From Elusimicrobiota bacterium (GTDB lineage: Bacteria > CG03): a stretch of 41,483 nucleotides of DNA. The notes under the pieces were generated by a model. It saw only the letters and a program-made list of their open reading frames with translations, ran no database searches and was not told the origin of the DNA. Numbering within the stretch: position 1 is the stretch's first letter; every line of letters begins with the position of its first letter. Both the position numbers and the translations under genes were made by a program. The stretch is from contig JAGHAK010000075.1 of assembly GCA_021161565.1 (NCBI GenBank), positions 1-41,483 of the forward strand. The letters run 5' to 3'. Shown here in pieces: positions 23,966-32,966 of the stretch.

Positions 23966-24463
23966 ATGAGATTCGTTTTTGTTATTATGATTTTGTTTTC
24001 GCTTTTTTCCTGTAAACACAAAAATCCTGTCGCCGAGATTGTCACCGAGAAAGGAACGATTGTCTGCGAACTTTACCCGAAGGAAGCGCCGAAAACGGTG
24101 GAAAATTTTATCAGGTTGTCGAAAAAAGGTTTTTACGGCAATCTGACTTTTCATAGAGTCGTTCCGGATTTTGTCATTCAGGGCGGGGATCCCAAGGGAA
24201 ATGGCACAGGCGGTCCGGGATACACTCTTCCCGCCGAAATTTCGCCCAATTTGAGGCATATCGCCGGCGCCCTCGCGATGGCGCGCCTGCCGGACAGGAT
24301 TAATCCCGAGAGAAGGTCGAGCGGGAGCCAGTTTTACATCTGCCTGAAAGACAATTTTTTTCTTGACGGAAAATACACGATTTTCGGAATGGTTGTAAGG
24401 GGAATGGATGTCGTCAGAAAAATCGCGGTTGGCGACAGGATTTTGAAAATCAACATAGAATAG
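23966..24463 (+). CDS. Cyclophilin-type peptidyl-prolyl isomerase, probable lipoprotein
   Basis: MRFVFVIMILFSLFSC has a lipobox. FHRVVPDFVIQGGDPKGNGTGGPGY is the cyclophilin core. Shine-Dalgarno GGAGGG lies upstream of ATG 23966. Confidence 0.88.
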   Translation: MRFVFVIMILFSLFSCKHKNPVAEIVTEKGTIVCELYPKEAPKTVENFIRLSKKGFYGNLTFHRVVPDFVIQGGDPKGNGTGGPGYTLPAEISPNLRHIAGALAMARLPDRINPERRSSGSQFYICLKDNFFLDGKYTIFGMVVRGMDVVRKIAVGDRILKINIE

Positions 24464-25689
24464 TGGATTATTTTCGTTATCGAGAAGACGAACTTTTTGC
24501 GGAGGACGTTCCGCTGAAATTTCTCGCCGGCAGATTCGGCACGCCGCTTTATGTCTATTCGAAAAAAACGATTGTCAGACATTTGAGGGCGTTCAAAAGA
24601 AGTTTTTCCGTCTTGAATCCGTTGATATGTTTCGCCTATAAAGCGAATTACAACAGAAAAATTCTTGAAATTATGAAAAAAGAGGGTTTCGGAGCCGACT
24701 GCGTTTCGATGGGAGAACTGAAACTCGCGAAGAAGATAGGTGTGCCTTCCTCGAAAATCGTCTTTAACGGCAATGGCAAGACGGAAGAGGAAATCGAGAT
24801 GGCGGTTGGGATGAAAATAAAAATGTTTAATGTCGACAGCGTCGAGGAACTTCTTACGATTTCCCGCATCGCCCGGAAAAGAAATACGCGCGCGAATATC
24901 GCTTTCAGGGTAAATCCCGAAATTGAAGTTCCCACGCACCCGCATATCGCCACAGCCCTGAAACAGTCGAAATTCGGCATACCTCTTGAAGACGCATTTT
25001 CTGCGTACGAATTAGCGAAACAGATTCCGTCTATCGCGGTTTTGGGAGTCCATTTTCACATAGGTTCGCAAATTACCGAAGTCGGTCCATTTCTGAAAGC
25101 CCTGAGAAAAACGTCGGCATTCGTCAGAAAACTCGGCAGGCGCCGAATACCCGTGAAGTTTTTGAATATTGGCGGCGGGATAGGGGTTAGGTACCACAGG
25201 GAGTTGCCCGCGGACCTCGACACATACGCACGCGAGTTTGCGAAGTGTTTGAAAATACCCGTTAAAATAATTATGGAGCCGGGCAGGGCGATAATCGCCA
25301 ACGCGGCGGTCTTGCTTGCCAAGGTGGTCGCGACGAAAAAAACCCGTTACGGAAATTTTGCCGTGGTGGACGCCGGGATGAACGATTTGGTTAGACCCAG
25401 TATGTATGGCTCTTATCACGAAATAGAGCCGGTAAAAATTTTTGAAGACAGAAAGAAAACGAAATATTCCGTTGTAGGTCCTGTTTGCGAGTCGGGGGAT
25501 ATTTTCGCGAAAAAGGCAGCGCTTCGTCAGGTTTTTGCCGGCGAACTTCTTGCGTTTCGCAGCGCCGGCGCCTACGGATATTCGATGAGTTCCAACTACA
25601 ATTTGCGTTCCCGTCCCGCGGAGGTTCTTGTGGACGGAAAAAATTTTATCGAAATCAGAAAAAGAGAAAAAACAGAGGATTTGATATGA
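24463..25689 (+). CDS. lysA: Diaminopimelate decarboxylase
   Basis: Fold-III PLP decarboxylase motifs (YAYKAN, GGGIGVRY, EPGRAIIANA, CESGD). It lies in a dap gene context. Confidence 0.92.
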   Translation: MDYFRYREDELFAEDVPLKFLAGRFGTPLYVYSKKTIVRHLRAFKRSFSVLNPLICFAYKANYNRKILEIMKKEGFGADCVSMGELKLAKKIGVPSSKIVFNGNGKTEEEIEMAVGMKIKMFNVDSVEELLTISRIARKRNTRANIAFRVNPEIEVPTHPHIATALKQSKFGIPLEDAFSAYELAKQIPSIAVLGVHFHIGSQITEVGPFLKALRKTSAFVRKLGRRRIPVKFLNIGGGIGVRYHRELPADLDTYAREFAKCLKIPVKIIMEPGRAIIANAAVLLAKVVATKKTRYGNFAVVDAGMNDLVRPSMYGSYHEIEPVKIFEDRKKTKYSVVGPVCESGDIFAKKAALRQVFAGELLAFRSAGAYGYSMSSNYNLRSRPAEVLVDGKNFIEIRKREKTEDLI

Positions 25690-26483
25690 AGACAATTCCG
25701 TTTGTGAAAGCGCAGGCTTCGGGAAACGATTTCATCGTGTTAAAGGACCGGCTAGATTTGATGAGAAAGAGCACCGTGAAAAAACTATGCGACAGAAAAT
25801 TCGGCATTGGCGCGGACGGGGTTCTTTTTGTTTTTCCCACTGATGTTGCGGATTTCAGATTTGCTATTTTAAATTCCGATGGCAGCCATCCGAAGATGTG
25901 CGGCAATGGCGCGCGGTGCGCGGCTGTTTGGGCGGCAAAATATCTGAAGCCCGGAAAGAAGAATCTGAAAATCGAAACGGATGCCGGAATGATTTCGGCA
26001 AGAGTTTTCAAAAATTCTTCGCGCGTCGAGATTCCCCGACCGAAGCGGTTCAGGGAAAATTTTGCGATTACTGCTGCGGGAAAAGTTTTCAAAGCAAATT
26101 TTGCGGTTGCGGGCGTGCCGCATGCGGTTTTATTTCTCGACAATATACAAAATATCGATGTAGGAAAATTCGGTCGTCTTATCAGATTCCACAGAGAGTT
26201 TGCTCCGGCCGGAGCAAATGTCGATTTTGCGAAGATTTTGAGCCGAACCAGCATAAAAATCCGCACTTATGAGCGCGGCGTCGAGGGGGAAACTCTTTCT
26301 TGCGGGACAGGGGCCACCGCGGCCGCGTACATAGCGAACAGGATTGGTTTGACAGGGAACATTGTGAAAGTTGACACGAGAAGCGGCGAAACTCTGACTG
26401 TCGAGATTTCGGAGGAAAGAACCTTTCTGACCGGTCCCGCGCAGATTGTCTTTGAGGGAAAAGTAAGAGGATTAATAAGGTGA
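25686..26483 (+). CDS. dapF: Diaminopimelate epimerase
   Basis: ASGNDFIV, CGNGARC and SCGTGATA catalytic motifs. ATGA overlap with the lysA stop. Confidence 0.92.
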   Translation: MKTIPFVKAQASGNDFIVLKDRLDLMRKSTVKKLCDRKFGIGADGVLFVFPTDVADFRFAILNSDGSHPKMCGNGARCAAVWAAKYLKPGKKNLKIETDAGMISARVFKNSSRVEIPRPKRFRENFAITAAGKVFKANFAVAGVPHAVLFLDNIQNIDVGKFGRLIRFHREFAPAGANVDFAKILSRTSIKIRTYERGVEGETLSCGTGATAAAYIANRIGLTGNIVKVDTRSGETLTVEISEERTFLTGPAQIVFEGKVRGLIR

Positions 26484-26538
26484 TAAGATGCGGAAGTTTG
26501 CCAGTTTCGCATTGTTGTCTTTTTAACTTATCACCTTA
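26476..26538 (+). promoter_or_regulatory. Intercistronic 12-bp stem-loop between dapF and dapA
   Basis: TAAGGTGATAAG (26476-87) pairs perfectly with CTTATCACCTTA (26527-38). It spans the dapF stop and ends 6 nt before the dapA Shine-Dalgarno (AAGGAGGG). It is followed by an A-run, not a T-run. Confidence 0.3.
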
Positions 26539-26556
26539 AAAAAGGAGGGAAATAAT

Positions 26557-27606
26557 ATGAAATTCGAAGGCGCATGGACGGCGCTTGTGACGCCGTTTAA
26601 GGAAGACGGTTTGATTGACTGGGACGGACTCAAAAAAAATGTCGATTTTCAGGTCAGGGAAGGCATTTCCGGTCTTCTGCCGATGGGAACAACCGGCGAA
26701 TCCCCGACTCTCAGTCATGAAGAACACAATGAAGTCAATAAAAGGGTTTTCGAATTTGCCGGCGGAAGGTGCGGAGTTCTCGCTGGCTGTGGTTCCAATT
26801 CGACGAGCGAATCGATAAAATCCGTCGAAGCCGCGAGAAATGCGGGTATCCGCGCGGCTTTGATAATAGACTGCTATTACAACGGGCCTTCCTCGTTTGA
26901 GTTGAGGACGAGGCATTATGAAGTCATTGCGAAAAAATTCCCCGATGTGAGTTTTGTTCCGTACATCATTCCTGGGAGAACCGGCTGTGAAATGTCCGCG
27001 CATGATCTCGCCTTGCTTGCCGCAAACTGCCCGAATGTTCCGGCTGTGAAGGAAGCGACAGGGAACATCGAAAGAATGGAAATTGAAGGAAGAATTCTGC
27101 CTGCTGATTTTTCCATTCTATCTGGAGACGACGGGATAACTTTCGAAATGATGGCTTCCCCGAAAATCAGGGCGAAAGGGGTCATTTCGGTTATGACGAA
27201 TCTGACGCCTGGAGCAATAAGCCAGATGTGCAGGTTTCTTCTCGAAGGCAAACCCGGCGCCGCAGAGGAAATCCATAAAAAACTGAAACCGCTTTTCGAT
27301 GTTATTACCGTTAAAGTGAAACGGAGTGTTTCCATAAAAGGCATATCTTACGCGGTTGTGGACAAATTTAGGAACCCTGTGCCTATAAAGACGATGATGA
27401 ACGGTCTCGGTTTGCCTGCCGGAGCGATGAGGAATCCTCTCGGTAAAATGACTCCGGCGGGTGTTTTGATTGTGCGCGACGCCCTTAAGACGGTCTGGAA
27501 AATGAGCCCCGAAGTTTTAAAGCCAATCGAAGATTTTTACGGCATCAGTGTCGAAAAGAGATTGAACGACGATTCCGTATGGGAATCTCTTTGCGAAAAA
27601 GTTTGA
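26557..27606 (+). CDS. dapA: 4-hydroxy-tetrahydrodipicolinate synthase (long form, 349 aa)
   Basis: ALVTPF...GLLPMGTTGESPTLS N-terminal signature. The C-terminal part is about 50 aa longer than the roughly 290-aa length I recall as usual. Confidence 0.88.
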   Translation: MKFEGAWTALVTPFKEDGLIDWDGLKKNVDFQVREGISGLLPMGTTGESPTLSHEEHNEVNKRVFEFAGGRCGVLAGCGSNSTSESIKSVEAARNAGIRAALIIDCYYNGPSSFELRTRHYEVIAKKFPDVSFVPYIIPGRTGCEMSAHDLALLAANCPNVPAVKEATGNIERMEIEGRILPADFSILSGDDGITFEMMASPKIRAKGVISVMTNLTPGAISQMCRFLLEGKPGAAEEIHKKLKPLFDVITVKVKRSVSIKGISYAVVDKFRNPVPIKTMMNGLGLPAGAMRNPLGKMTPAGVLIVRDALKTVWKMSPEVLKPIEDFYGISVEKRLNDDSVWESLCEKV

Positions 27607-27623
27607 AGGCAGAAGGGGGTCTG

Positions 27624-28382
27624 ATGCTGAATATTTGTATTTCCGGAGCCGCAGGCAGAATGGGCGCGGCATTGATAGAAGCGAGCAGGGAAAAGGACTG
27701 GATTAGGATTTCCGGTCTTCTGGAAAAAGAAGGCAGTCCCGAAATAGGGCGCATTGTTTCGGGAGTGGAAATTGTTTCGGATGTAAAAAAAGCGGTTGAC
27801 GGATGTGACTGCTTTATAGAATTCACGACCCCTTCCGCCACGCTAAGTCACATCTCCGAAATCGATGTTCCCGCTGTTGTCGGCACGACGGGCTTTACGT
27901 TTGAGGGAACGAAAAAACTCGGAAAACTGTCGGAAAAAATTCCGATTGTTTTTTCGCCCAATATGAGTCTGGGAGTGAATCTGCTTTTTTCGTTGGTGAA
28001 AACAGCAGGGAGAAAACTTTCGGGATATGATATCGAGATTGTCGAGGCGCACCACAACAGAAAAAAAGACGCCCCCAGCGGCACCGCCCGCAGAATAGCC
28101 GAGATACTGAAAGAACTGGGAGATTATGAATTAGTCCACGGCAGAAACGGCAATATAGGAGCGAGAAAGAAAAACGAAATCGGAATACACGCTGTCCGCG
28201 CGGGAGACATTGTCGGCGAGCACACTGTGATTTTTGCCGGTGCAGGAGAATGTTTTGAACTTTCTCACAGGGCTTATTCGAGGAGTTGTTTCGCCGAAGG
28301 CGCTCTTTTGGCGGCGAAGTGGGTCGCTTCCGCCCGCCAGCCAGGGCTCTACACAATGGCGGATGTGCTGGAAATAGAATAA
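27624..28382 (+). CDS. dapB: 4-hydroxy-tetrahydrodipicolinate reductase
   Basis: ISGAAGRMG nucleotide-binding motif and EAHHNRKKDAPSGTA signature. Start at ATG 27624 behind AAGGGGG. Confidence 0.92.
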   Translation: MLNICISGAAGRMGAALIEASREKDWIRISGLLEKEGSPEIGRIVSGVEIVSDVKKAVDGCDCFIEFTTPSATLSHISEIDVPAVVGTTGFTFEGTKKLGKLSEKIPIVFSPNMSLGVNLLFSLVKTAGRKLSGYDIEIVEAHHNRKKDAPSGTARRIAEILKELGDYELVHGRNGNIGARKKNEIGIHAVRAGDIVGEHTVIFAGAGECFELSHRAYSRSCFAEGALLAAKWVASARQPGLYTMADVLEIE

Positions 28383-28483: not shown

Positions 28484-31366
28484 GTGGCCGTCGGCATAAA
28501 TCCTGTCAGGGATTCTTCTTCTTCGGGCAGGGCTTATATAATTTCAAGACTTTTCGAAAAACGGGGAAAACTTTTTGTCATATCCGAAAGTTCCGATGAT
28601 GCGGAGATTCTGGTCTCGGATTTGTCCGCTTTTGGCGTTCCTTTCATCCGTTTTTCCCGGAGAAACGAAAATCTCGCGGAAACCCTGCTTTTTCTAAACA
28701 GAGGCGAAGACGGAATAATCGTTGCTGATAGAGATTCACGAGTTATCAGAGTAAAAACGCCGGAGCAATTCGCGAAGAGCGTTTTTGTAGAAAAAGGCGC
28801 AGATTTTTCCCCACAGACTCTTGCCGCAGAACTTTCCGGCTCCGGGTTTGAAAAATCGGATTTTGTTTTCGAGCGGGGAAAATTTTCTCTTCGGGGGTCG
28901 GTCCTGGATTTCTGGGATTTTGTCTCGCCTCGGCCTGTCAGAGTCAATTTTGGAATTTCGAAAATAAAGAAGATAAAATTTTTCGACCCGGACAGCCAGA
29001 TTTCGGACAGAAATACCGACAGAGTTTTCATTTTCAAAAATCCGCTCGGCAAGAGAGCGATTTTATCGTTTTTGCCGGATAGTTTTGCGCTTGTTTTTCC
29101 CGATACGGTGGATATAAAAGAGAAGAAATTCGAAAAATTCGTCTTTACGCCTTCGGGAGAAGATTTTTTCATCCGCCGCGCAGCGGTTTATAACGGGAAT
29201 GTGGAGATTTTTCTGAATGACCTGCGCAATTTTGAGAAGAACGGATTTGAGGTTTCCATTTTCTGCGAAAGTCCCGAATCGAAGGATTATCTCGAGGGTA
29301 TCATTTCGTCCCAAATTTCTCTTAAAGTCATCTATTTTATCAAACCTTTTTCAGGCGGTATCGTTGACTGGCGAAACAGGAAAGCTTATTTGAAAAGTAG
29401 CGAGATTTTCGGATTCGGCGCGAAACTGAAAGAAGTTGAAAAAATTGCCCGAAGGAAGATTCCTCCAGGCGACCTTCTTTACAAAAAGGGGGATTTTATC
29501 GTTCATTCCGATTACGGAATCGGTGAATTCCGGAAATTGAGCCGTTTTGAAATAAAAGGCAAGTTCGTGGATTATATCACGATAAAATACGCCGACGGTA
29601 TCGCGCATATTCCACTTGAGGAATTTTCCAAACTTCACAGATACAAATCTTCGCCGGGCGTAAAGCCCGCGTTGTCCCGTCTCTCGACGAGGGATTTTGA
29701 GGCGAAAAAAAGAAAAATTTCGAAGGAAACAATGAAAATCGCCGCGGAAATCCTCAAGGTCAACGCAAAAAGAAAAAAGATCGACGGAATTGCCTTTACC
29801 CCCTCTCCGGCCGAAAAGGCTTTTGCGGGGCAGTTCCCCTATGACGAGACATCCGATCAGAGGGAAGCGATAAGAAGAATTTTGAGCGAAATGGAAAAGC
29901 CCCATCCGATGGACCATCTTCTCTGCGGCGATGTCGCCTTCGGCAAGACGGAAGTGGCGATGCGCGCGGCTTTCAGAGCCTGCTGGAACGGATATCAGGT
30001 TCTCTGCGTTGTTCCCACCACTGTTCTCGCCCAGCAGCATTTTTTTGTTTTCAAAGAAAGGTTTAAGAATTTTCCCATCGAAATAGATGCTCTTTCGAGA
30101 TTTACGAGAAAAGAGAGAGACAGAATCATTAGGGATGTCGCTAATGGAAAAACAGACATTCTCATAGCGACTCACGCCGCTTTCGGAAAAGAGGTGCGGT
30201 TTCCCAAATTGGGACTTTTGATTATAGACGAGGAGCACCGCTTCGGAGTCAGGCAGAAAGAGGAGATAAAGAAAAAATATCCAGCGGTGGATGTTTTGTC
30301 GATGTCCGCCACGCCCATTCCCCGAACGCTTTCGATGGCGCTTTCCAGAATTCTTTCGCTTTCGATTATAGAGACCCCTCCGGTGGGCAGGGTAAAAACG
30401 CAGACCTATGTCGGCAGGTATAAACCGGCAATCGCGAGGGAAGCGATTATGCGGGAGATACATCGCGGCGGTCAGGTCTATTATGTTTTCAACAGAATTT
30501 CCGTTTTGAAAGAGGTTTGCGGGGAACTGAAAAAAATGTTTCCGCATCTGTTGATAGAAATAGCCCATGCGAAAATGTCCGCAGAGAAACTTTCCCGGAA
30601 AATGCTTGATTTTGCGGCGGGAAAATTCGATATTCTTCTCACCACCTTGATCATACAGTCGGGTTTGGATATTCCGTCGGTAAACACTCTTATCGTTCGC
30701 GGCGCGGAGCTTCTGGGCCTGGCACAGATGTATCAGCTGAGGGGCAGAATAGGAAGGGGCATGAGAAAGGCTTATTGTTATTTTTTTTATGGCGACCTCG
30801 TGCCGACAGCAAGGAAAAGAATAGAGTTTTTCCAGGAATTTGACGACCTGTCGTCGGGTTTTCGCCTCGCGATGAGGGACCTCGAAATGAGGGGAGCGGG
30901 CAACATTCTCGGACCGCAACAGCACGGCTATATTAAGCAGATAGGAGAAGAACTTTATTTCACGCTTCTCGAAAAAGCCATAAGCAAACTGAAGGGAATT
31001 CCGCAGCCAAGGCGCTGCGAGTTAAAGTTCATCACAGGAGGCAGATTCATTCCGCAGCAATATGTGGAAAGTCAGGATGAAAGATTCCGTTTGTATATTC
31101 GTCTTTCGAGAATAACGACCGAAACCGCTTTGCTGGAGTTCGAAGATGAACTCAAAGACAGATTCGGAAACCTGCCGCCGCCTGTCGCTGAACTCATAGA
31201 CGCGACCCGGCTCGGGATTGTCGCGCGGACAGCAGGCATTTTTCGGATAGAAGAAGCGCCGAATGGTTTTATACTGGAAAAGGCGGGTGGTTCTTTGCCT
31301 TTTCGCTTTTTCGCAGGGAGCGTTCGGGAACTGACGGAAAAAATAAAAAAAGACAAAAGAAAGTAA
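28484..31366 (+). CDS. mfd: Transcription-repair coupling factor (short N-terminus, 960 aa)
   Basis: CarD/RID-like GDFIVHSDYGIGEF and SF2 helicase motifs (GDVAFGKTEVAMRA, DEEHRFGV, QLRGRIGRG). The GTG start has no Shine-Dalgarno, so the start is uncertain. Confidence 0.88.
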   Translation: MAVGINPVRDSSSSGRAYIISRLFEKRGKLFVISESSDDAEILVSDLSAFGVPFIRFSRRNENLAETLLFLNRGEDGIIVADRDSRVIRVKTPEQFAKSVFVEKGADFSPQTLAAELSGSGFEKSDFVFERGKFSLRGSVLDFWDFVSPRPVRVNFGISKIKKIKFFDPDSQISDRNTDRVFIFKNPLGKRAILSFLPDSFALVFPDTVDIKEKKFEKFVFTPSGEDFFIRRAAVYNGNVEIFLNDLRNFEKNGFEVSIFCESPESKDYLEGIISSQISLKVIYFIKPFSGGIVDWRNRKAYLKSSEIFGFGAKLKEVEKIARRKIPPGDLLYKKGDFIVHSDYGIGEFRKLSRFEIKGKFVDYITIKYADGIAHIPLEEFSKLHRYKSSPGVKPALSRLSTRDFEAKKRKISKETMKIAAEILKVNAKRKKIDGIAFTPSPAEKAFAGQFPYDETSDQREAIRRILSEMEKPHPMDHLLCGDVAFGKTEVAMRAAFRACWNGYQVLCVVPTTVLAQQHFFVFKERFKNFPIEIDALSRFTRKERDRIIRDVANGKTDILIATHAAFGKEVRFPKLGLLIIDEEHRFGVRQKEEIKKKYPAVDVLSMSATPIPRTLSMALSRILSLSIIETPPVGRVKTQTYVGRYKPAIAREAIMREIHRGGQVYYVFNRISVLKEVCGELKKMFPHLLIEIAHAKMSAEKLSRKMLDFAAGKFDILLTTLIIQSGLDIPSVNTLIVRGAELLGLAQMYQLRGRIGRGMRKAYCYFFYGDLVPTARKRIEFFQEFDDLSSGFRLAMRDLEMRGAGNILGPQQHGYIKQIGEELYFTLLEKAISKLKGIPQPRRCELKFITGGRFIPQQYVESQDERFRLYIRLSRITTETALLEFEDELKDRFGNLPPPVAELIDATRLGIVARTAGIFRIEEAPNGFILEKAGGSLPFRFFAGSVRELTEKIKKDKRK

Positions 31367-31389
31367 ATTAACGCATCGCAAACAAACTA

Positions 31390-31483
31390 TTGACAAAAGA
31401 AAACAAAATTTGTAACTTGACAAAAGAAAGCAAAGGAAAATTCTTGGTAAGAATAGAAATTGCCTATTGACAAAAGAAAGCAA
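31390..31483 (+). repeat. Three direct copies of a 17-bp motif TTGACAAAAGAAA(A/G)CAA
   Basis: Copies lie at 31390-406, 31417-433 and 31467-483, with one mismatch in copy 1. Spacers are 10 and 33 nt. The second spacer contains the palindrome ATTCTTggtAAGAAT (31440-54). Confidence 0.85.
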
Positions 31484-31495
31484 TAGATGTAAAAT
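31467..31495 (+). promoter_or_regulatory. Near-consensus sigma70 promoter formed by repeat copy 3
   Basis: TTGACA (31467-72), a 17-nt spacer, then TAAAAT (31490-95). The predicted start site is about 31502, which coincides with the first possible start codon (GTG 31502). Confidence 0.55.
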
Positions 31496-31501
31496 CATAA
31501 A

Positions 31502-31849
31502 GTGAGCGAAAAGATGCAAAAAGAGATAATGAATGTTTCGGAACTTGCCGTATATCTCGGCGTCAGCCGGTCCAAGATTTATAAATTGATAAGGGAAAAG
31601 AAAATTCCTGCCTCGAAAATAGGGAGGCAGTATAAATTTTCAAAGCAGGTTGTCGACGCATGGTTGAAAGAAAACATAATCACGGCTCCATCGCCGATGC
31701 CGTTGTTTCAGAAAAAAAAATCCGAAGATACCTATCGGCCGATAGGTAAGAAAGGAGGTGAGGAAAATGGCAGTGAAGAAAAAGGCAAAGAAGAAGGTGG
31801 CAAAGAAAAAAACAGCCAAGAAGAAGGTAGCGAAGAAAAAAGTCGCTAA
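31502..31849 (+). CDS. Excisionase-family (MerR-like) helix-turn-helix DNA-binding protein with acidic low-complexity tail
   Basis: MNVSELAVYLGVSRSKIYKLIREKKIPASKIGRQYKFSKQVVDAWL is a typical excisionase-type HTH. The start may be GTG 31502, ATG 31514 or ATG 31529. The tail (GEENGSEEKGKEEGG...) lies in a polypurine tract. Confidence 0.75.
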   Translation: MSEKMQKEIMNVSELAVYLGVSRSKIYKLIREKKIPASKIGRQYKFSKQVVDAWLKENIITAPSPMPLFQKKKSEDTYRPIGKKGGEENGSEEKGKEEGGKEKNSQEEGSEEKSR

Positions 31850-31886
31850 GAAAAAGACAGCAAAGAAAAAGAAAAAGAAGAAGTAA
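31767..31886 (+). CDS. 39-aa lysine-rich peptide MAVKKKAKKKVAKKKTAKKKVAKKKVAKKKTAKKKKKKK (not in the ORF track)
   Basis: I hand-translated this. AAGGAGGTG lies 6 nt upstream of ATG 31767. The frame is bounded upstream by TAG 31743-45 and ends at TAA 31884-86. It overlaps the HTH ORF tail in the +1 frame. Confidence 0.5.
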   Translation: MAVKKKAKKKVAKKKTAKKKVAKKKVAKKKTAKKKKKKK

Positions 31887-31898
31887 GGAGGTTGAGCC

Positions 31899-32195
31899 AT
31901 GGCTCAGAAATTGGTTAAACTCGGCTTGAAGAGAGTAAAGAACACTCTCTATTACATCGGCAAAGATGGCAATGTTTGGGCAGCGCCTATGGCGAGAGCC
32001 GGAAAGAAGGGCGGTAAAGCCAAAAAAGTCGCCGATGCCGGTGTGAAGAAAGAATCTGGCTATCTCTACTTCCTTGACAAGGACGGAGATGTGGCGAGAG
32101 CCAAGATGGCGCGCGGCGGAAAAAAGAAAAAGAAAGCCGCGAAGAAAAAGAAGAAAGCACCCAAGAAGAAAGCCAAGAAGAAGAAAAAGAGATAA
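31899..32195 (+). CDS. 98-aa basic protein with an internal duplication and poly-Lys tail
   Basis: AAGGAGG lies 7 nt upstream of the ATG. The two repeats are LYYIGKDGNVWAAPMARAGKKGGK and LYFLDKDGDVARAKMARGGKKKKK. The tail is KAAKKKKKAPKKKAKKKKKR. Confidence 0.8.
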   Translation: MAQKLVKLGLKRVKNTLYYIGKDGNVWAAPMARAGKKGGKAKKVADAGVKKESGYLYFLDKDGDVARAKMARGGKKKKKAAKKKKKAPKKKAKKKKKR

Positions 32196-32216: not shown

Positions 32217-32255
32217 ATCCCGCCCCCGATTTTATCGGGAGCGGGATTTTTTTTA
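32217..32255. terminator. Bidirectional intrinsic terminator shared by convergent genes
   Basis: ATCCCGCCCCCGAT (32217-30) pairs with ATCGGGAGCGGGAT (32234-47) with one mismatch. A T-run follows at 32247-54. A T-rich stretch (CTTTTT, 32211-16) lies on the 5' side. On the minus strand that stretch reads as A residues after the hairpin, so a minus-strand U-tract is not evident. Confidence 0.8.
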
Positions 32256-32966
32256 TGCCTGTTTGAAAATTTCGGCAGGCGCGAGTTTTTGTTTTGCGTT
32301 TGCGAGAAGTTTCAAAATTTTCCGTCTTTTTGGGGGCGTAAGTTTTTTGACCGCTCCGGGGCGAATCGCAATTTCATCGAGCAGTTTGTAGGGAGCCCCG
32401 ATTTCTTTTTCGTCCGTCTGTCCCTTCCACAGCCCCGCTGACGGAGGCTTTTCGACGATTTTTTTCGGAATCTTTAGTTTTTTGGCGAGGTCTATTACTT
32501 CATTTTTGGTTAAATTTCCGAGGGGAATAATATCGCTTGCTCCGTCGCCAAATTTTGTGAAGTATCCGAGTTTCAGTTCCGTTTTATTGGAAGTTCCGCA
32601 GACAAGGCAGTTGTTCGCGTTGGCGAAAAAATACAGAACCGCCATTCTGAGACGCGGTTTTATGTTTGCCAGGGCAATCTTGTTTTTTGTTTTTCCGACC
32701 GCTTTTTTGAATTCTCTGTAAACGCCGTCAAGCCGGACGATTTTGTATGGCATTCCCAATTGTTTCGCCAGAAAAACAGCGTCTTTTTTGTCGGCTGCCG
32801 CCGATTCGCAGGGCATAATCAGAGCAAGCGCGTTTTTTCCCACCGCTTTTTTTATCAGCGCAGCAGTGACAGCCGAGTCTACGCCGCCGCTCAGTCCCAC
32901 GACAAAGCCCCGCGCTCCGCTTGCCTTAAGTTTTTTTCTCAGCCATGAGACAATTTTTCTTTCCAT
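32253..32966 (-). CDS. nadE: NH3-dependent NAD+ synthetase
   Basis: PP-loop GFVVGLSGGVDSAV and an overall NadE-like sequence. Confidence 0.85.
   Translation of the reverse strand: MERKIVSWLRKKLKASGARGFVVGLSGGVDSAVTAALIKKAVGKNALALIMPCESAAADKKDAVFLAKQLGMPYKIVRLDGVYREFKKAVGKTKNKIALANIKPRLRMAVLYFFANANNCLVCGTSNKTELKLGYFTKFGDGASDIIPLGNLTKNEVIDLAKKLKIPKKIVEKPPSAGLWKGQTDEKEIGAPYKLLDEIAIRPGAVKKLTPPKRRKILKLLANAKQKLAPAEIFKQA

Follow-up and report, generated by a model that had tools for sequence, protein, structure and literature searches.

A conserved three-gene cassette of Elusimicrobiota that encodes a lysine-repeat micropeptide and a member of a widespread unnamed family of small basic proteins

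The DNA-binding chlamydial protein Hc2 is built of lysine-rich pentamers whose number varies between strains (PMC2848022), and the KPAA-type tails of the Pseudomonas proteins AlgP and PhaF can target DNA, polyphosphate granules or mRNA (PMC9239181, PMC12818456). Here we analyze a cassette of three same-strand open reading frames (ORFs) in a 41,483-nucleotide (nt) stretch of DNA from an Elusimicrobiota bacterium (assembly GCA_021161565.1, contig JAGHAK010000075.1), hereafter the window. ORF1 encodes a helix-turn-helix (HTH) protein, ORF2 a polycationic micropeptide of 39 amino acids (aa) and ORF3 a 98-aa protein with a lysine- and alanine-rich tail, and all three lie between mfd (28484-31366) and the convergent nadE (32253-32966). 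The first-pass annotation of this DNA placed the three ORFs between one strong promoter and a strong terminator, and every one of these elements is present. The cassette is real, conserved and unexplained by current annotation. Its main interest lies in how large and how taxonomically widespread the unnamed family of ORF3 is, and in the constrained polycationic micro-gene ORF2.

ORF2 (31767-31886, plus strand) reads MAV(KKK)A(KKK), followed by five V/T-A-KKK units and a terminal KKKK, with lysine at 25 of its 39 positions and a net charge of +25. The lysine content is thus 64% rather than the 67% first reported, and of the six (V/T)AKKK units counted at that stage five are clean, the sixth being the AVKKK/AKKK start; at the DNA level, a 15-nt period is repeated 7 times. 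The gene, its position, its Shine-Dalgarno sequence (SD) and its ATG are conserved in ten distinct related loci, where the peptide measures 16, 20, 20, 22, 32, 33, 38, 39, 45 and 63 aa. All ten loci keep a GG(A/G)GGTGA motif 7-8 nt 5' of the ATG, a frame that opens with MAKKK(V/A)(A/V)KKK, and a distance of 12-38 nt from the peptide stop to the ORF3 start (12 nt in the window, and counted from the last of three copies in L013). Two loci, one in a metagenome-assembled genome (MAG; L013, 2752-2979) and the other on an independent metagenome contig (L095, 1261-1479), display a tandem triplication of a ~75-nt unit, in which every copy is complete with SD, ATG and stop and encodes a 17-22 aa MAKKKVAKKKVAKK(R)KR peptide.

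The pattern of change between loci offers a further level of detail. Length differences are multiples of 3, with the exception of a compensating pair of 1-nt gaps between the window and L015, the most divergent alignment and an ambiguous one. In four comparisons of orthologues, the differences at codon positions 1/2/3 number 0/3/10, 0/2/11, 2/5/10 and 2/4/6. The lysine frame is free of stops across the ten loci, while the other two frames hold 24 and 8 in total, and base usage follows the codon phase, T occurring 1/64/13 times at the three codon positions. The bias toward position 3 has to be read with caution, since low-complexity alignments tend to fall into register. This problem does not touch three other observations, namely that the start site is conserved, that only the lysine frame is free of stops and that the gene has been duplicated in tandem. 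Judged by these sequence features, ORF2 is a real gene under coding constraint.

Neither the window nor ~650 kb of related loci yielded a further SD-preceded lysine-rich micro-ORF. ORF2 has no match in Pfam or NCBIfam at E <= 1, a test limited by low-complexity filtering, and our searches turned up no earlier description of a free-standing (V/A)AKKK-repeat peptide gene with coding constraint. Gene conversion within a genome between ORF2 and the ORF3 tail was considered and is not supported, the shared DNA words being no longer within than between loci. Gene callers miss this type of gene. In the three assemblies that cover the present locus, the full contig (L001) carries a call for the 111-aa HTH protein, the overlapping frame, and omits ORF2, and the truncated contigs (L002/L003) carry a call for the 39-aa peptide.

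ORF3 (31899-32195, plus strand, 98 aa) consists of a core of two homologous ~37-aa units (aa 1-72, 31899-32114) and a tail (aa 73-98, 32115-32195 including the stop codon). The two halves share 43% identity (E = 6e-8), and the AlphaFold2 model of the core adopts two three-stranded beta-meanders, with a predicted local distance difference test score (pLDDT) of 89-96 over aa 1-70. The duplicated beta-hairpin-like repeats noticed in the first-pass annotation are thereby borne out. Each unit is built around G-Y-L-Y-F/Y-x-D/G-K-x-G-D/N-V ... K-M-A-R-G-G, and the net charge amounts to +12 for the core and +31 for the whole protein.

Residues 1-75 of ORF3 retrieve at least 978 proteins (90% clustering) at 55-93% identity, none of them with a Pfam domain and nearly all labelled hypothetical. 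A profile made from 78 members extends the family to 1369 clusters at 50% identity among 1.84 billion representatives. In a scan of one genome per GTDB species, relatives are present in at least 550 genomes, mainly of Marinimicrobia/Fidelibacterota and also of Elusimicrobia/Endomicrobia, Omnitrophota, Planctomycetes, Myxococcota and Babeliaceae, as well as in archaeal MAGs labelled Woesearchaeota, Thermoplasmatota and Methanobacteriota. Identity is 55-70% between bacterial phyla and some of the archaeal MAGs; the closest genome matches (88-93%) come from one Elusimicrobia MAG and two unclassified MAGs (L013-L015), which makes the window one of Elusimicrobia type. A typical member has 75-77 aa and a basic core (78 of 78 aligned members, net +4 to +15, median +10), and 98% of 240 small members are net positive. 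The family consensus, which ORF3 fits, is again a tandem of ~37-aa units, G-[YF]-L-Y-[YF]-x-[DG]-K-x-G-[DN]-[VI] ... M-A-R-G, with L17, Y18, K22, G24, M31, R33, G39, G54, Y57, G63 and M70 invariant.

Comparison of the core with Pfam, NCBIfam, PADLOC and PHROGs gave no family match, and Foldseek searches against the PDB and BFVD returned nothing at E <= 0.001. Sequence and profile searches of the PDB found only chance-level likeness to YWTD and choline-binding repeats (best E 0.078). Across these searches by hidden Markov model (HMM) and structure, ORF3 has no match to a ribosomal or other characterized family, whereas a clear match of this kind had been named beforehand as an outcome that would speak against a new module. 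Choline- or cell-wall-binding repeats (PF01473, Choline_bind_1) were rejected as an assignment, with E = 0.35, 11.7 bits against a cut-off of 20.5, two units only and no apparent signal peptide. The names "YcgL (UPF0745)" and "20S proteasome subunit" that the Joint Genome Institute (JGI) attaches to family members are treated as spurious, as Pfam does not confirm them. We found no publication on the two-beta-meander family or on histone-like proteins of Elusimicrobia in a partial full-text search, which returned analogues only.

The module also occurs in larger proteins, fused to ParB_N+HTH_ParB, to HNH, to OmpA (behind a membrane segment), to HEAT and to Zn-ribbon/GAF/RING. Among the larger module proteins (P0121, P0126, P0184, P0211, P0215 and P0219) are an 886-aa membrane protein with five copies and a 354-aa protein with four. 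A guess that the fusion protein P0225 carries a PD-(D/E)XK nuclease is unsupported by Pfam. Sequenced phages and plasmids gave no tblastn match to the family, and IMG/VR yielded 11 distant matches. Single-repeat forms of 46 aa were seen on the viral-classified IMG/VR contigs L189 (1852-1989) and L190 (3001-3138), and other distant members show 31-50% identity.

The tail of ORF3 (Lys/Ala/Pro, GGKKKKKAAKKKKKAPKKKAKKKKKR) is disordered in the model, with pLDDT 54-60, and is histone-H1-like in composition. A K/R-rich tail is present in just 16 of the 240 small members, and the majority of the family stops near aa 75. Such tails, 15-56 aa long, are confined to some lineages, namely Elusimicrobia/Endomicrobia (up to 56 aa) and some Planctomycetes and Omnitrophota, and consist of lysine-rich pentamers in a strain-dependent number. 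The disordered Lys/Ala tail is an addition to the core that only certain lineages have made. Both ORF2 and the ORF3 tail share the H1-like compositional signature of short Lys/Ala(/Pro) tandem repeats, disorder and variable repeat number, and the likeness of the AKKK tails to histone H1, chlamydial and AlgP-type proteins proposed at first sight agrees with this histone-H1/Hc2/AlgP-like composition.

ORF1 runs on the plus strand from the ATG at 31515 (alternative GTG at 31502) to 31849 and encodes 111 aa (115 aa from the GTG). It matches Pfam HTH_17 (PF12728) with 61 bits against a cut-off of 27 and TIGR01764 with 63 bits against 28.8. The folded domain spans about aa 1-57 and is followed by a disordered C-terminal stretch rich in E, G and K, with pLDDT of 83-93 at aa 1-50 and below 60 beyond aa 60 in the AlphaFold2 model. 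The top Foldseek matches are RdfS excisionase, RacA, BldC and the mycobacteriophage Pukovnik Xis, with probability 1.00, a root-mean-square deviation (rmsd) of 1.2-2.3 A and a target-normalized TM-score of 0.57-0.76; the E-values reach only 8e-3 to 0.2, as the domain is small. By family models and predicted fold, ORF1 is a bona fide winged-helix DNA-binding domain of the HTH_17/excisionase family. A match to MAD1 falls below threshold (NCBIfam 54.7 bits against a cut-off of 80; PADLOC 2.7e-11).

The excisionase-like label given to ORF1 in the first-pass annotation therefore holds for its fold and family models but not for its role. A functional excisionase was rejected, given that integrase partner and integrated element were not found, that the neighbors are mfd and nadE, and that the housekeeping synteny is conserved; no integrase or phage gene lies within ~8 kb of the cassette, in line with what had been stated. 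The ORF1 subfamily is narrow, with 74 proteins in 5.8 billion, and among ~170 loci of the ORF3 family gene an ORF1-type HTH occurs only in those of Elusimicrobiota type. There it is always located 5' of the family gene on the same strand, adjacent to it in two operon variants (A and B) and separated from it by a KamA-family gene in the third (C). The pairing of HTH and family gene is likely functional, because the flanking genes differ between the operon variants. The proposal that the HTH protein is the operon's own regulator is plausible on the same linkage, which recurs in three Elusimicrobiota clades with different flanks.

ORF1 and ORF2 overlap by 83 nt (31767-31849) in different frames, a feature that the initial ORF layout, otherwise correct, had missed. 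In the overlap, AAG-AAG is read as lysine in ORF2 and GAA-GAA as glutamate in ORF1, which is read one base behind. ORF1 acquires from it a net-acidic tail rich in Glu, Gly, Ser and Lys that differs among relatives by E/K swaps, and in L013 the HTH frame stays open across all three peptide copies and on into ORF3. Selection holding this acidic-tail frame open was considered and rejected. T-ending codons before lysine make up 11% in ORF2 and 11% in the non-overlapped ORF3 tail, and because frame-closing codons are equally rare in both, the overlap with ORF2 seems to have produced the Glu-rich ORF1 tail only incidentally. A programmed frameshift that would fuse the HTH domain to the lysine repeats was likewise rejected, as the junction GAG-GAA-AAT (GAG-AAA-AAT in relatives) is not a canonical slippery heptamer. 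At this junction the consensus SD and ATG are conserved among relatives.

The expression signals are strong. A main promoter of sigma-70 type (31467-31495, plus strand) reads TTGACA-17 nt-TAAAAT with a TG immediately 5' of the -10 hexamer, and agrees with the consensus at 11 of 12 positions; 4 promoter-like sites occur in the region where 1.1 are expected. All three Elusimicrobiota operon variants share the arrangement CTATTGACAA...TGTAAAAT 5' of the HTH gene. The leader of ORF1, from promoter to start, measures only ~7-20 nt, and ORF1 translation is for this reason expected to be weak or leaderless, and low relative to ORF2 and ORF3. Both of these have GGAGG 7-8 nt 5' of their ATG, confirming the strong SDs that had been pointed out: the one of ORF2 (GGAGG, 31754-31758) lies 8 nt upstream, and the one of ORF3 (AAGGAGG, 31885-31891) overlaps the ORF2 stop codon. 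The intrinsic terminator (32217-32255, plus strand) combines a 13-bp G+C-rich stem with one mismatch (hairpin 32217-32247) and U8, and faces the 3' end of the convergent nadE. Its hairpin is worth -26 kcal/mol (z = -4.8; 0 of 200 shuffles fold as well), and L013, L014 and L015 display an equivalent hairpin and T-run.

Direct repeats of the form TTGACAAAAGAAA(A/G)CAA precede ORF1 on the plus strand (31390..31484), with copies at 31390, 31417 and 31467 and a partial fourth at 31352 within the end of mfd. These TTGACAAAAGAAAGCAA repeats, three full and one partial (31352-31484), are spaced by 40, 27 and 50 nt and represent duplicated -35/spacer modules; 17 nt after the first copy stands TAACTT, and at the same distance after the third, TAAAAT. 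BldC and Xis proteins bind cooperatively, head to tail, to direct repeats. The repeats could be tandem promoters or putative operators of the HTH protein. In L014 and L094, a second upstream promoter-like TTGACA...TGTAATAAT takes the place of the window's direct repeats. A perfect 9+9 palindrome (18 nt; ACCTATCGG/CCGATAGGT = ACCTATCGGCCGATAGGT; 31730-31747, plus strand) lies just 5' of the ORF2 SD. It can form an 8-bp RNA hairpin (region z = -2.0), sits in a 9-codon insertion of ORF1 specific to the window and is absent from homologous loci. An Rfam scan of the region gave sub-threshold matches only, all of them on the terminator hairpin, and a known RNA element or riboswitch was rejected, no Rfam family scoring above threshold.

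The cassette is conserved across related loci, contrary to the lack of conservation that had been named as a refuting outcome, and the idea of a three-gene unit holds within the clade of the window; it does not hold as a fixed module, as the 75-aa core stands alone in most phyla. Variant A, that of the window clade, comprises the HTH gene, one or more lysine peptides and the tailed family protein, with conserved lysA-dap-mfd and nadE flanks. Variant B, in rumen-type Endomicrobia (L033, L072, L090, L150), has the HTH gene followed by a family protein with a long AKK tail, without the peptide. In variant C (L173-L177, a sister Endomicrobia clade), a KamA-family radical SAM aminomutase gene lies between the HTH gene and a short-tailed family protein. 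The free peptide is hence specific to one clade, and sister clades have none or a KamA-family gene in its place. This gene fills the peptide slot with a start that overlaps the HTH stop in L173 (1033-2740) or directly follows it in L175 (1094-2734), and its product reaches 235-261 bits against a TIGR00238 cut-off of 199, staying below the equivalog cut-offs of all Lys/Glu/Arg 2,3-aminomutases. A KamA-family gene also lies directly 5' of the family gene in L161 (183-1722), on a contig too short to show an HTH gene upstream.

In the window, lysA, dapF, dapA, dapB and mfd flank the cassette upstream, and nadE and a response regulator with an HD domain lie downstream. The lysine biosynthesis string lysA, dapF, dapA, dapB (24463-28382) runs on the cassette strand just 5' of mfd. 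The order ppiase-lysA-dapF-dapA-dapB-mfd-HTH-family gene is kept in relatives (L178-L180), with dapF missing in L180. In five loci from MAGs of Omnitrophota, Planctomycetes and delta/Myxococcota type (L040, L065, L069, L076, L083), the family gene is located directly 3' of a putative aspartate-dehydrogenase-like gene with a GCGAIG motif, and in L040, L069 and L076 uvrA follows the family gene. Neighbors related to nucleotide excision repair and to NAD thus occur in a second, independent arrangement in these three loci, the first being that with mfd and nadE in the window.

Tentatively, and with somewhat less than even confidence, we read the cassette as an autoregulated operon for abundant small polycations that would bind cellular polyanions, most likely chromosomal DNA. 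A single transcript would start at the near-consensus promoter. The weakly translated ORF1 product, a winged helix of Xis/BldC/RacA type, would bind TTGACAAAAGAAAGCAA-type sites at its own promoter and set the level of expression, while ORF2 and ORF3 would be made in bulk from their strong ribosome-binding sites. The ORF3 protein would dock on nucleic acid through its compact basic two-beta-meander core with exposed conserved aromatic and Arg/Lys residues, and its disordered Lys/Ala tail would neutralize backbone charge in the manner of histone H1/Hc2 tails. An equivalent of this tail would be provided in trans by ORF2, a free oligocation resembling protamine, with a dose tuned by repeat number and gene copy number. 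The binding steps, the abundance of the products and the autoregulation in this scheme are what we infer from the features described above.

This reading can be based on the charge of the products, the disorder of the tail, the Hc2-like polymorphism in repeat number, the expression signals, the constraint on ORF2 and the DNA-architectural fold of ORF1, and on these grounds the basic proteins of the operon probably coat or compact nucleic acids. Weak hints at DNA come from the fusions to ParB_N+HTH_ParB and HNH, from the adjacency of mfd here and from that of uvrA in Omnitrophota, Planctomycetes and Myxococcota. Several observations weigh on the other side, among them the register effect on the position-3 bias of ORF2. 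Sso7d and Cren7 are among the DNA-binding proteins with solved structures in the PDB, and likeness of the ORF3 core to known DNA-binding folds, these two included, was undetected in the PDB and Foldseek searches. The family gene has no neighborhood conserved across phyla, each phylum showing its own context, and the other fusions (OmpA, HEAT, GAF/RING, membrane segments) indicate that the module is not exclusively DNA-linked. Lysine-rich disordered regions also bind polyphosphate granules (PMC9239181) and mRNA (PMC12818456), so that the ligand cannot be told from composition alone. The function suggested in the first-pass annotation, compaction of the nucleoid or binding of nucleic acids, is a reasonable idea and one of several readings. 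More doubtful in our view is a wider proposal, in which an Elusimicrobia clade encodes free, highly expressed protamine-like oligolysine peptides (16-63 aa, 1-3 copies) that would act in trans with a basic protein of new fold to neutralize and compact nucleic acids, and in which the 75-aa family (at least 550 species, among them some archaea and the Marinimicrobia, which are abundant in the sea) would represent an unrecognized class of nucleoid-associated proteins or nucleic-acid chaperones. As an extension of this proposal, the acidic tail of the HTH repressor could bind surplus polycation, thereby sense the free pool and close a feedback loop.

The polyanion might instead be RNA, with the 75-aa core acting as an RNA chaperone or ribosome-associated factor and the tail and peptide binding rRNA or mRNA, like ribosomal micro-proteins or the KPAA region of PhaF. 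We regard this as unlikely, even though the K/R-rich micro-proteins bS22, bL37, Thx and eL41 are ribosomal and the proteins discussed here are small, very basic, 55-70% identical across phyla and preceded by strong translation signals. A lysine-rich repeat region has moreover been shown to bind mRNA and activate translation (PMC12818456). Against this stand the lack of any match to a ribosomal or RNA-binding family, a patchy phyletic distribution, and ~165 loci in which a neighborhood of ribosomal-protein or translation genes was never seen; a peptide that ranges from 16 to 63 aa among close relatives is also unlike a ribosome-embedded component. Binding or organizing polyphosphate, or bridging it to the chromosome as proposed for AlgP, appears improbable. 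The repeats do resemble the C-terminal domain of AlgP, which localizes to polyphosphate granules and spaces them (PMC9239181), but neither the ten scanned flanking ORFs of the window nor the related loci contain ppk, ppx or a granule-related gene, and as most family members have no tail, the tail cannot define the role of the family. A link to lysine itself has still less to commend it. Here the cassette would serve lysine supply or beta-lysine chemistry, as a lysine or nitrogen sink or with a core modified with or by the product of a KamA-type aminomutase, and ORF2 would reflect a lysine theme instead of nucleic-acid binding. The KamA-family gene between HTH and family gene in the sister Endomicrobia clade, the KamA adjacency in L161 and the lysA-dapF-dapA-dapB string just 5' of mfd in the window clade fit such a role. 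However, the lys/dap synteny does not extend beyond a single group of close relatives, and the HTH gene has a strong promoter of its own. Most family genes lack both a KamA and a lys/dap neighbor, a partner resembling an EpmA-like ligase or an acetyltransferase was not seen, and the KamA proteins fall below every equivalog cut-off, so that their substrate is unassignable from models.

Two further explanations concern ORF2 and the origin of the cassette. ORF2 could be a regulatory upstream ORF or leader, in which pausing at lysine codons or translational coupling tunes ORF3, or a tolerated slippage-prone repeat, its product being without function in either case; we give this little credence. 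It would account for 25 lysine codons directly 5' of ORF3, for the ORF2 stop that overlaps the ORF3 SD and for the very unstable repeat number. ORF3 has its own full SD, though, the SD of ORF2 is consensus, and the gap of 12-38 nt, in the window 12 nt filled by the ORF3 SD, leaves no room for an attenuator. ORF2 is not a typical amino-acid leader, because ORF3 is no lysine-pathway enzyme and no alternative terminator/antiterminator RNA is formed; an Rfam match to such an element was not obtained either. The peptide composition is kept while the DNA drifts at position 3, the gene has been triplicated with intact signals, and sister clades carry the family gene without ORF2. Least credible is a mobile or defense module, be it an excisionase and its cargo, a toxin-antitoxin pair made of a toxic polycation and the neutralizing HTH protein, or part of a MADS-type defense. 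The matches of the HTH protein to excisionase models and, below threshold, to MAD1 would suit it, but no integrase, att-like repeat or defense gene is nearby and the lysA...mfd/nadE housekeeping synteny is stable in relatives. The family is also without matches in sequenced phages and plasmids and has only the 11 distant ones in IMG/VR, and ORF2 and ORF3 are absent from PADLOC and PHROGs.

If the 75-aa family does bind nucleic acid, as the polycation reading implies, it would be a widespread architectural or chaperone protein for Marinimicrobia/Fidelibacterota, Elusimicrobiota, Omnitrophota and DPANN-type archaea, lineages whose chromatin proteins are essentially unstudied. More than 1000 clusters of "hypothetical proteins" could then be named and assigned a function open to test. 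The product of ORF2 would be an oligocation encoded in the genome, the dose of which evolves through repeat slippage and tandem duplication. The locus also offers a clean case of dual coding, where one purine-rich stretch yields poly-lysine in one frame and a Glu-rich tail in the other. The core, a confidently predicted and very small new fold, is suited to nuclear magnetic resonance (NMR) and, if the model holds, could become a compact nucleic-acid-binding tag.

Compared with known systems, the cassette is closest in theme to Hc1/Hc2 and their Bordetella and Burkholderia relatives (PMC2848022), with which it shares Lys/Ala pentamers, a strain-variable repeat number, extreme positive charge and, presumably, DNA condensation by charge neutralization. 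Unlike in these proteins, the repeats are found here on a folded, widely conserved two-beta-meander core and also make up a peptide of 16-63 aa that is encoded separately, behind a ribosome-binding site of its own; Pfam Hc1 (PF07432) and Hc2 (PF07382) do not match ORF2 or ORF3, within the limits set by low-complexity filtering. Pseudomonas AlgP and PhaF (PMC9239181, PMC12818456) likewise combine a folded N-terminal part with a Lys/Ala(/Pro) repeat tail. In contrast to them, the repeat unit of the cassette is (V/A/T)AKKK and not KPAA, its protein has an unrelated folded domain and a far smaller size of 98 aa, and a free-peptide version and a dedicated HTH gene are present.

The family core recalls archaeal Sso7d/Sac7d and Cren7 in concept, as basic all-beta proteins of ~60-75 aa with exposed aromatics and stand-alone genes, but ORF3 is a tandem-duplicated three-stranded meander rather than an SH3-like barrel and shows no similarity to them in sequence, profile or Foldseek searches. 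ORF1 resembles Xis, RdfS, BldC and RacA in passing the HTH_17/TIGR01764 models, in superposing at 1.2-2.3 A and in the direct repeats at its promoter; it differs from them by the lack of an integrase partner or mobile element, by its Elusimicrobiota-specific subfamily and, in the window clade, by an acidic tail made by the overlap. Protamines and polyamines are functional analogues only, short unstructured oligocations that neutralize nucleic-acid charge, of which ORF2 would be an encoded equivalent. In contrast to protamines, ORF2 is based on lysine instead of arginine and is bacterial, and the likeness is one of analogy, not homology. Taken by its sequence features, the cassette is thus a bacterial variation on the H1-like polycation theme, set on an uncharacterized, widespread small fold and accompanied by a stand-alone gene for an oligolysine-type peptide.

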